From assembly GCF_016903815.1 (NCBI RefSeq), contig NZ_CP069973.1: a stretch of DNA of 64,000 nucleotides, one strand, 5' to 3'. Position numbers: made by a program. The DNA is from Escherichia coli. GTDB lineage: Bacteria; Pseudomonadota; Gammaproteobacteria; Enterobacterales; Enterobacteriaceae. Shown here in pieces: positions 43,501 to 46,292 of this stretch. Positions within the stretch are counted from its first letter, which is position 1. Each line of letters starts with the position of its first letter.

Positions 43501-46292
43501 CGTTCTGGCGGGCGCACATCGGCCTCGTAGATGATAACGCCACCTTCACGCAGGCGCTTTTCGTAATTCATCAACTGGCGATGGGCGCGACAGTAAAGGC
43601 CATACACCGGCTGGCGATGAAAATCCTTTAACGCCAGCGGCGTCAGGCGAAAGCCTTGCTCACCCTGCAAAATATGCTGGGCGCGGGGAACCTGATCGGC
43701 GGGAATAAACGCCACGGACTCTTGCGGCGCAAGCGTAACCTGCAACGGCCCGTTGTCCGTCGCCAGCCAGAAGGAGACTTCTGTCCCTTGCGGGGTGTCC
43801 CGCCAGTGTCGGGTTAAGATAAAACCTGCCTGCGCCACGCTGAAAATCCAATAAAAAACCAGGCTTGATTATAGCCTGGTTTCGTTTGATTGGCTGTGGT
43901 TTTATACAGTCATTACTGCCCGTAATATGCCTTCGCACCATGCTTACGCAGATAGTGTTTATCCAGCAGCGTTTGCTGCATATCCGGTAACTGCGGAGCA
44001 AGCTGGCGGCAGAAAATCCCCATATAAGCGACTTCTTCCAGCACGATGGCGTTGTGCACCGCATCTTCGGCATTTTTGCCCCATGCAAATGGGCCGTGAG
44101 AATGGACCAGGACGCCGGGCATTTGTGCTGCGTCGATTCCCTGTTTTTCGAAGGTTTCTACGATGACGTTACCGGTTTCCCACTCATATTCACCGTTGAT
44201 TTCTGCGTCGGTCATTTTGCGGGTGCAGGGAATGGTGCCGTAGAAATAGTCGGCGTGGGTGGTACCGGTTGCTGGAATCGACTGACCCGCCTGCGCCCAG
44301 ATGGTGGCGTGGCGCGAGTGTGTGTGCACAATGCCGCCAATGGACGGGAATGCCTGATAGAGCAGCCGGTGAGTTGGCGTGTCGGAGGAGGGCTTTTTCG
44401 TTCCTTCAACCACTTCACCGGTTTCGATGCTGACCACGACCATATCGTCAGCGGTCATGACGTTGTAATCGACGCCGGAAGGTTTGATCACCAAGACGCC
44501 GCGCTCGCGATCAACGGCGCTGACGTTGCCCCATGTGAGCGTGACCAGGTTATGTTTTGGCAGCGCCAGGTTGGCTTCTAATACCTGGCGTTTGAGATCT
44601 TCTAACATGTTGACTCCTGAGAGGTCGTTTCCCCTCACCCCGGCCCTCTCCCCAAAGGGGCGAGGGGGAAAACAATGCCGGATGCGCTTTGCTTATCCGG
44701 CCTACAAATTCACAGCGTGTAGGCCTGATAAGACGCGTCAGCGTCGCATCAGGCGTTACACACCTGATGCGGCTACTTAGCGACGAAACCCGTAATACAC
44801 TTCGTTCCAGCGCAGCGCGTCTTTAAACGCTGGCAGGCGGGTGTCGTTATCAATCACCGTGATTTCAATGTCGTGCATCTCGGCGAACTGGCGCATATCG
44901 TTGAGGTTCAGCGCATGGCTGAAAACGGTATGGTGCGCGCCACCAGCGAGGATCCACGCTTCGGAAGCAGTTGGCAGATCCGGTTGCGCTTTCCACAGCG
45001 CATTCGCCACCGGCAGTTTCGGCAGGGAGTGCGGTGTTTTCACCGTGTCGATGCAGTTAACCAGCAGACGGTAACGATCGCCGAGATCAATCAGACTGGC
45101 GACAATGGCCGGACCGGTTTGAGTGTTGAAGATCAGGCGGGCAGGATCTTCTTTACCGCCAATACCGAGGTGCTGAACGTCGAGGATCGGTTTCTCTTCT
45201 GCGGCGATCGACGGGCAGACTTCCAGCATGTGGGAGCCGAGCACCAGGTCATTGCCTTTCTCGAAGTGATAGGTGTAGTCCTCCATAAAGGAGGTGCCGC
45301 CCTGCAGACCGGTTGACATCACCTTCATGATGCGAAGCAGGGCGGCAGTTTTCCAGTCGCCTTCGCCCGCAAAGCCGTAACCCTGCTGCATCAGACGCTG
45401 TACGGCCAGACCAGGAAGCTGTTTCAGACCGTGCAAATCTTCAAAGGTGGTGGTGAACGCGTGGAAGCCACCTTGTTCCAGGAAACGCTTCATCCCCAGC
45501 TCAATACGCGCCGCTTCCAGCACGTTCTGTCGTTTTTCGCCGTGGATTTGTGTGGCAGGCGTCATGGTGTAGCAGCTTTCGTACTCATCGACCAGCGCGT
45601 TAACATCGCCGTCGCTGATGGAGTTCACCACCTGCACCAGATCGCCAACCGCCCAGGTATTGACGGAGAAACCGAACTTGATCTGTGCGGCAACTTTATC
45701 ACCATCGGTGACCGCTACTTCACGCATGTTATCGCCAAAACGGCAGACTTTCAGATGACGGGTATCCTGTTTAGAGACCGCCTGGCGCATCCAGGAGCCG
45801 ATACGCTCATGGGCTTGTTTATCCTGCCAGTGACCGGTAACCACGGCATGTTGCTGACGCATACGCGCGCCAATGAAGCCGAACTCGCGACCGCCATGTG
45901 CAGTCTGGTTCAGGTTCATAAAGTCCATATCGATACTGTCCCACGGCAGCGCCGCGTTAAACTGGGTGTGGAATTGCAGCAACGGTTTGTTGAGCATGGT
46001 CAGGCCGTTGATCCACATTTTGGCCGGGGAGAAAGTGTGCAGCCACACCACCAGACCAGCGCAACGATCGTCGTAATTCGCGTCGCGGCAAATAGCGGTG
46101 ATTTCATCCGGCGTGGTGCCCAGCGGTTTCAACACCAGTTTGCAGGGCAGTTTCGCTTCCGTATTCAGCGCATTAACAACGTGCTCGGCATGTTGGGTGA
46201 CCTGACGCAGGGTTTCCGGGCCATACAGATGCTGGCTGCCAATGACAAACCACACTTCATAATTATCAAAAATCGTCATTATCGTGTCCTTA

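Follow-up and report, generated by a model that had tools for sequence, protein, structure and literature searches.

Four intergenic gaps in an Escherichia coli genome that differ in length from their K-12 counterparts are ordinary polymorphic E. coli spacers made of small hairpin-forming repeats: the repeat families are known, and so are the kinds of polymorphism. Very probably the differences have a mixed origin: the number of BIME-2 units together with a BoxC/PIT/TMECO element (TMECO below) in the araD-araA gap, deletions inside REPs in lspA-fkpB and caiF-caiE, and a plain indel in yabI-thiQ, brought about by the mechanisms that we infer below.

The window is the whole stretch of DNA analysed here, 64,000 nucleotides of contig NZ_CP069973.1. 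By blastn it is collinear with positions 22,823-86,070 of K-12 MG1655 at ~96-98% identity. A global alignment with MG1655 in MAFFT gave all indels, and the mapped ends of the K-12 genes gave the gap lengths:

44609-44776: araD-araA gap, 284 bp in K-12, 168 bp in the window (-116)
2880-2966: lspA-fkpB gap, 124 bp in K-12, 87 bp in the window (-37)
12217-12334: caiF-caiE gap, 85 bp in K-12, 118 bp in the window (+33)
50058-50158: yabI-thiQ gap, 113 bp in K-12, 101 bp in the window (-12)

A preliminary description had named these four differences from K-12 coordinates, as ~116, ~37 and ~12 bp shorter and ~33 bp longer in the window, and had asked for a pairwise alignment to MG1655. In this alignment the lengths are not identical, and all four values are reproduced to the base; further, the coordinates 44609-44776 that it gave are exactly those of the araD-araA gap (blastn, MAFFT). 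Other length differences to K-12 are found at rihC-dapB (+381), folA-apaH (+555), caiB-caiA (-11) and yabP/yabQ (-47).

The REP core GTAGGCCKGATAAG has eight real matches in the window, located in caiF-caiE, caiB-caiA, araD-araA and yabI-thiQ, and all REP copies are extragenic, between mapped coding sequences. In K-12 the core is detected in three of the four gaps, while the diverged caiF-caiE REP is visible by alignment only. The earlier statement that all four gaps contain REPs is thus correct for K-12; in the window, lspA-fkpB keeps only remnants. At the Rfam gathering thresholds, a scan of the whole window reports SgrS, the leu leader, ES003 and a TPP riboswitch and no other family; none of these lies in the four gaps.

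The largest difference lies between araD and araA, where the window contains the following parts:

43913-44608, minus strand: araD coding sequence, start codon 44608-44606; length and position as in K-12 b0061, and annotated araD in identical genomes
44614-44618, minus strand: araD Shine-Dalgarno sequence AGGAG, read from the sequence and invariant in the allele alignments
44619-44628, minus strand: unique 10-nt filler, ACGACCTCTC in mRNA sense, between the TMECO and the Shine-Dalgarno sequence and without counterpart in other TMECO copies
44631-44666, minus strand: BoxC/PIT/TMECO of type B with one mismatch, CCCTCGCCCCTTTGGGGAGAGGGCCGGGGTGAGGGG, an exact match to the published consensus
44677-44705, minus strand: y-type REP (CCGGAT class, short inner stem), with the core match at 44692-44705 and inverted repeats; on the plus strand it is an iREP with CTAC at its end
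44706-44718: 13-nt linker between the REPs of the BIME-2
44719-44754, plus strand: z2-type REP with GTAG at its 5' end; a z2 REP of identical sequence lies at 16740-16775
44755-44776: start of the next BIME unit, a truncated REP CCTGATGCGGCTAC that adjoins the araA stop codon
44777-46279, minus strand: araA coding sequence, stop codon 44779-44777

In the sense of the araBAD mRNA, the order is therefore the araA stop codon, the truncated REP, one BIME-2 unit (z2 and inverted y), the TMECO, the 10-nt filler and the araD ribosome binding site. The z2 REP is an imperfect palindrome preceded by GTAG: at 44723-44754 it reads GCCTGAT-AA-GACGC...GCGTC-GC-ATCAGGC, with arms that are 86% complementary and AA opposite GC as a two-base mismatch in the stem. 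These are features of a REP, as is the extragenic position, and a two-base mismatch of this kind is required for binding by TnpA(REP). The y and z classes we take to be separated by CCGGAT versus CCTGAT and by their consensus sequences. No allele lacks the truncated REP, and the repeat search and the RNA fold pair it with the z2 REP, at the outer arm.

K-12 carries 3.1 tandem copies of an 85-bp unit in this gap (96% matches), compared with 1.1 units in the window. Each unit pairs a y REP with an inversely oriented z2 REP, and the number of tandem copies differs between strains, as in a BIME-2. In addition, the window has a 57-nt segment at 44619-44675 (the filler plus 44629-44675) where alleles that lack the TMECO have TCG, a net gain of 54 bp. 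The difference of -116 bp is therefore explained by the absence of two BIME-2 units (-2 x 85) and the presence of the TMECO segment (+54).

The TMECO consensus, CCCTCNCCC-N3-6-GGGNGAGGG-N3-GGGNGAGGG, has a single exact match in the window, at 44632-44666 on the minus strand, while none of 100 shuffled sequences has one; it has no match in the corresponding 72 kb of K-12, nor in the O157 and ST131 alleles of the gap. The 36-mer at 44631-44666 is identical to TMECO no. 3 of K-12 and to TMECO no. 82 of strain E24377A, and in an alignment with three K-12 copies the similarity extends over ~44628-44672. The family is described as dispersed in about 20-30 intergenic copies per E. coli genome; in our search the median was 11 matching places per genome at E<=1e-3.

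E24377A no. 82 is located at 68,414-68,379 (PMC4666352, Table S8), a position that falls within the 168-bp araD-araA gap of E24377A itself. The TMECO of this locus is accordingly already catalogued in a table published in 2015 (PMC4666352); the locus was matched by its coordinate, as the names araD and araA are absent from the supplements. The same paper demonstrated in vitro that single-stranded DNA of this sequence type forms an intrastrand purine-motif triplex, and TMECO loci were described as hypervariable between strains and often deleted. In our calculations the hairpin part of the window copy folds at -12.8 kcal/mol, in a model that contains the Watson-Crick hairpin only.

Among 5,426 complete E. 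coli genomes, the TMECO junction of the araD-araA gap is present in 1,565. Five alleles can be distinguished, and their shares, like all shares in this text, were estimated on 40-60 evenly spaced rows from a genome collection that is clinically biased:

114 bp: one unit, ~9%
199 bp: two units, ~19%
284 bp: three units, ~40%
168 bp: TMECO and one unit, ~30% (the window and E24377A)
253 bp: TMECO and two units, rare (strain 2014C-3075)

Without the TMECO the alleles have one, two or three units, and with it one or two; the number of units and the presence of the TMECO are therefore independent of each other. In the window as well as in E24377A and 2014C-3075, the TMECO has the same junctions, and this argues for one origin. 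Two genomes from outside the species, E. albertii (the 114-bp form, one unit) and Escherichia sp. MOD1-EC7003 (the 284-bp form, three units), are both without TMECO, and because of this the insertion is probably derived within E. coli, where the element would have arrived by some copy mechanism.

In lspA-fkpB the difference is of another type. K-12 has two full REPs separated by a 16-nt linker. In the window the linker is unchanged, and deletions of 20 and 18 bp have reduced each REP to 16 nt, GCCGGATGCG|GCCTAC and its near-complement:

2888-2935: two REP remnants, 2888-2903 GCCGGATGCGGCCTAC and 2920-2935 GTAGACCGCATCCGGC, from the alignments

Together the remnants still pair as a single hairpin of 16 bp (-20.6 kcal/mol and z -7.3 in the DNA fold). 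Alleles of 87, 107 and 124 bp are found at ~40%, 28% and 32%, and the decay of the REPs can be followed in steps: both are full in K-12, the right one is truncated in E2348/69, and both are truncated in the window. The difference between the strains consists of deletions inside the REPs, with a polarity that is suggested by the completeness of the REPs.

The same reasoning gives the opposite polarity in caiF-caiE, where the window has the intact form:

12248-12330: intact REP pair, with an iREP at 12248-12283, a linker at 12284-12300 and a y REP at 12301-12330

K-12 lacks 15 bp (the tail of a REP and linker) and 18 bp within the second REP, and judged by REP completeness it would be the deleted form. 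A third allele contains two tandem 90-bp BIMEs; the alleles of 118, 85 and 208 bp have shares of ~49%, 35% and 16%. The 18-bp loss GATAAGGCGTTTACGCCG is recurrent: K-12 has it in caiF-caiE, and the window in lspA-fkpB, where it affects the right REP. In a complete REP, the lost 18 bp are flanked by the 4-nt direct repeat GCCG, and the lost 20 bp by CG.

In yabI-thiQ, finally, the difference is a plain 12-bp indel in non-REP DNA beside a REP:

50058-50059: junction of the 12-bp deletion (K-12 AGATAGTCTTGT), 1 nt past the yabI stop codon, with the REP 7 nt further on
50066-50150: REP pair identical to K-12, with a z2 iREP at 50066-50102, a linker and a y REP at 50117-50150

The window form is rare here: alleles of 101, 113 (K-12) and 86 bp occur at ~5-6%, 82% and 8%, and the 86-bp allele, that of O157:H7, has an internally deleted REP. 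Over the 5,426 genomes, three to five alleles occur per gap. The proposal that the gaps can be used as strain markers is borne out by this, since every one of them is multi-allelic.

How might these alleles arise? The 85-bp repeats may slip or recombine unequally, so that tandem BIME units are gained and lost, or the units may be gained and lost via TnpA(REP), the tyrosine transposase associated with REPs. That TnpA(REP), by cleavage at C|T and strand transfer, and not slippage or homologous recombination, changed the number of BIME-2 units and possibly also truncated REPs is conceivable but rather unlikely. In vitro the enzyme cuts and recombines single-stranded oligonucleotides from the araD-A BIME of MG1655, that is from the very locus studied here, and a model of BIME amplification has been proposed (PMC3333891). 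However, unit boundaries cannot be placed in a perfect tandem array, so that slippage is equally compatible with the alleles, and the number of REPs is similar in strains with and without tnpA(REP) (PMC3333891).

For the truncated REPs, the breakpoints are informative. They lie at GATGCG|GCCTAC and GCCG|GATAAG..., not at the published TGCC|TGAT or GGCC|TAC, and direct repeats of 2-4 nt flank them. We also considered the truncations as joins of TnpA(REP) site I to site II, and rejected this as the breakpoints are unlike the published C|T sites. The enzyme is therefore disfavoured for the deletions inside REPs, although slippage is not thereby proven. Our proposal is that these deletions would result from replication slippage across the hairpin, between short direct repeats of the REP stem, in which case a slippage site may be built into y REPs.

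A different question is whether the TMECO is older than E. coli. To place it in a wider context, species-representative genomes were scanned with a degenerate pattern for the N-terminus of AraD. Among the 100 loci listed, from which the representatives of E. coli and E. fergusonii are absent, there are 76 enterobacterial araA-araD spacers, with a median length of 90.5 bp and a range of 47-284 bp. A REP core is present in 38 of the 76 listed, a strict TMECO in seven (three Pseudocitrobacter, Phytobacter, Enterobacter sp. kpr-6 and two Kluyvera) and neither in 32. The density of TMECO is high in these spacers, with nine matches in 6.8 kb versus six in the other ~688 kb of the same loci, bearing in mind that the species are not independent. 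These numbers suggest that REP and TMECO repeats are favoured, or at least tolerated, in the araA-araD spacer. Orthology of the window TMECO with the copies in Pseudocitrobacter or Kluyvera was considered but is not supported, as they differ in type and in the sequence of the loops and as the element is absent from the Escherichia outgroups.

It is improbable, in our opinion, that the TMECO in this spacer is ancestral, conserved for a function in araBAD expression and lost in K-12 and ~70% of E. coli. The seven of 76 species representatives, the nine matches against six in the flanks and a sense-strand copy in Pseudocitrobacter at a similar distance from the araD Shine-Dalgarno sequence agree with such an origin, as does the frequent deletion of TMECOs between strains (PMC4666352). 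Nevertheless, E. albertii and Escherichia sp. MOD1-EC7003 lack the element, 32 of the 76 species have a spacer of 47-60 bp with no repeat, and the copy in E. coli (type B, with a CCG loop) has an identical counterpart among the other TMECOs of that species, while those of Pseudocitrobacter are of type A with different loops. Further, in the published tests TMECOs acted neither as promoters nor as terminators, and they did not block polymerase in vivo. An insertion within E. coli is the reading that we prefer.

Very improbable is that all four differences are gains or losses of whole REP copies, which is how the preliminary description had explained them; as a complete account of the four gaps this is refuted by the alignments. 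It captures a part of araD-araA, which does differ by two whole BIME-2 units, but there it overlooked the TMECO segment, without which -116 cannot be reached. At caiF-caiE it comes closest to the truth: the third allele has a whole extra 90-bp BIME, yet the K-12 form shows no clean loss of a unit but internal losses of 15 and 18 bp that remove linker and most of one REP. It fails at lspA-fkpB, where the same two REPs are kept with an internal deletion in each, and at yabI-thiQ, where the indel lies outside REPs that are identical to those of K-12.

Assembly or sequencing artefacts, for example collapsed tandem repeats, have practically no chance of being the cause: although 85-bp tandem repeats can collapse in short-read assemblies, a collapse cannot yield a TMECO, the 25 kb around the gap are ~100% identical in the best 25 genomes listed (101 records at >=99%; strains 222, 103 and 50579417 are among the best matches), the 168-bp TMECO allele is present in ~1,565 complete genomes and the other alleles are equally recurrent, and the differences are not assembly noise because independent complete genomes with the same alleles number in the hundreds to thousands.

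What could the repeats do in the araBAD operon? In mRNA sense, the RNA of the araD-araA gap has a predicted fold of -80.8 kcal/mol (z -4.5) with three stable hairpin modules, and no promoter-like or terminator-like sites were found in a scan of 44400-45000, so that the elements do not look like evident signals for transcription. By analogy with other REPs, the hairpins would sit within the polycistronic araBAD transcript. REP hairpins protect upstream mRNA from 3'-5' decay, and Newbury, Higgins and colleagues reportedly described REPs in 1987 as barriers to such decay inside operons. The araD-araA hairpins fit this classical role in mRNA stabilisation, as far as the analogy holds.

A more far-reaching idea is that the araA-araD spacer is a selected or preferred repeat site across Enterobacteriaceae, and that the TMECO, 12 nt ahead of the araD Shine-Dalgarno sequence, would there measurably alter the translation of araD or the processing of the araBAD mRNA in comparison with alleles that lack it. 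We regard this as a long shot. If it were true, it would be the first physiological role for BoxC/TMECO elements. The presence of a TMECO or a REP in the araA-araD spacer of many genera makes araBAD a convenient natural system for studying whether repeats influence expression within an operon.

For the four gaps themselves the value is mostly practical, as the spacers are cheap multi-allelic markers of lineages. They also show that length differences in gaps with REPs should not be equated automatically with the gain or loss of whole REPs. Within 64 kb, three processes are on display: changes in the number of BIME-2 units, recurrent deletions inside REPs that we infer to be due to slippage, and the presence or absence of BoxC/TMECO.

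These processes can be compared with known systems. BIME-2 is defined as y plus z2, tandemly repeated to an extent that differs from strain to strain (PMC3333891, published in 2012); the variation in copy number had been described by Bachellier et al. (1997, Genetics), as cited in PMC3333891. The unit in the window has the same inverse y/z2 pair, a short linker and, in K-12, a period of 85 bp, and nothing essential is different: the window simply represents the one-unit state, with a y REP whose inner stem is shorter than in the y REPs of the other gaps.

The REP losses resemble hairpin-stimulated deletion between short direct repeats, as the losses of 18 and of 20 bp both take away the hairpin top, with GCCG or CG in the flanks, and as the 18-bp loss recurs at two loci; for REPs, this likeness is drawn here from the sequences. 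The element upstream of araD agrees with the TMECO family of Holder et al. (2015, PMC4666352) in its consensus, in being type B with one mismatch, in its intergenic position and in its variability between strains. It is unlike the usual members in being a single copy instead of an inverted pair, and in its location within an operon, in mRNA sense and 12 nt upstream of the araD Shine-Dalgarno sequence.

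Deletions within REPs, small hairpin-forming palindromes of intergenic regions, are recurrent: they are seen in the window (2888-2935), in K-12 (34,767-34,776; about 14768 in L001, the caiF-caiE locus) and in the yabI-thiQ gap of O157 (L011), where a REP has an internal deletion of 24 bp. An identical deletion of 18 bp, GATAAGGCGTTTACGCCG, with GCCG repeats on either side, is found at two loci in different lineages, namely in the right REP of lspA-fkpB in the window and in caiF-caiE of K-12. Every araD-araA allele has a similarly truncated REP directly next to the stop codon of araA.

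The caiB-caiA gap (window 16705-16775) also differs from K-12: the linker between its REPs is 11 bp shorter, and the tail of the first REP is mutated from CTAC to CGAC. The REP of type z2 in this gap has the same sequence as the z2 REP of araD-araA.

Further differences from K-12 involve coding sequence. The features concerned, together with a small RNA, are as follows.

5370-5735, plus strand: DUF805-family ORF in the rihC-dapB gap, 121 aa (Pfam E 8e-20)
7073-7125: ES003 sRNA in the dapB-carA intergenic region (Rfam match, 87 bits)
27933-28166, plus strand: chromosomal ccdA in the folA-apaH gap, 77 aa (Pfam CcdA E 4e-26)
28169-28420, plus strand: ccdB with an early stop in the same gap, 83 aa (profile positions 1-80 of 101 matched)
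28480-29328: apaH, its 3' end extended by 2 codons relative to K-12
36580-37338: single intact ORF, 252 aa (weak pentapeptide-repeat match)

The folA-apaH gap (27848-28479) is 632 bp long in the window versus 77 bp in K-12, which has one REP in place of ccdA and ccdB; the reading frame of ccdB continues past its TGA. The rihC-dapB gap (5349-5895) exceeds its K-12 counterpart by 381 bp, and K-12 lacks the DUF805-family ORF. The 252-aa ORF corresponds in K-12 to two pieces, yabP and yabQ, in a region with 47 bases more than the window (3 + 29 + 14 + 1).

When the 25-kb stretch 27000-51999 is compared with several otherwise identical genomes (H88-H93, H102-H105), the match is split into two pieces spanning about 35.3 kb, indicating that these genomes carry, within the stretch, an insertion of about 10 kb that the window lacks.

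Across genera, REP cores occur in the araA-araD spacer of 38 of the 76 enterobacterial species representatives scanned. TMECO, a BoxC/PIT element belonging to a separate repeat family, is present in this spacer outside Escherichia in Pseudocitrobacter, Phytobacter, Kluyvera and one Enterobacter species (loci L027, L029, L030, L083, L091, L095 and L111), frequently as inverted pairs, and its density there is far above that of the roughly 688 kb of flanking sequence.
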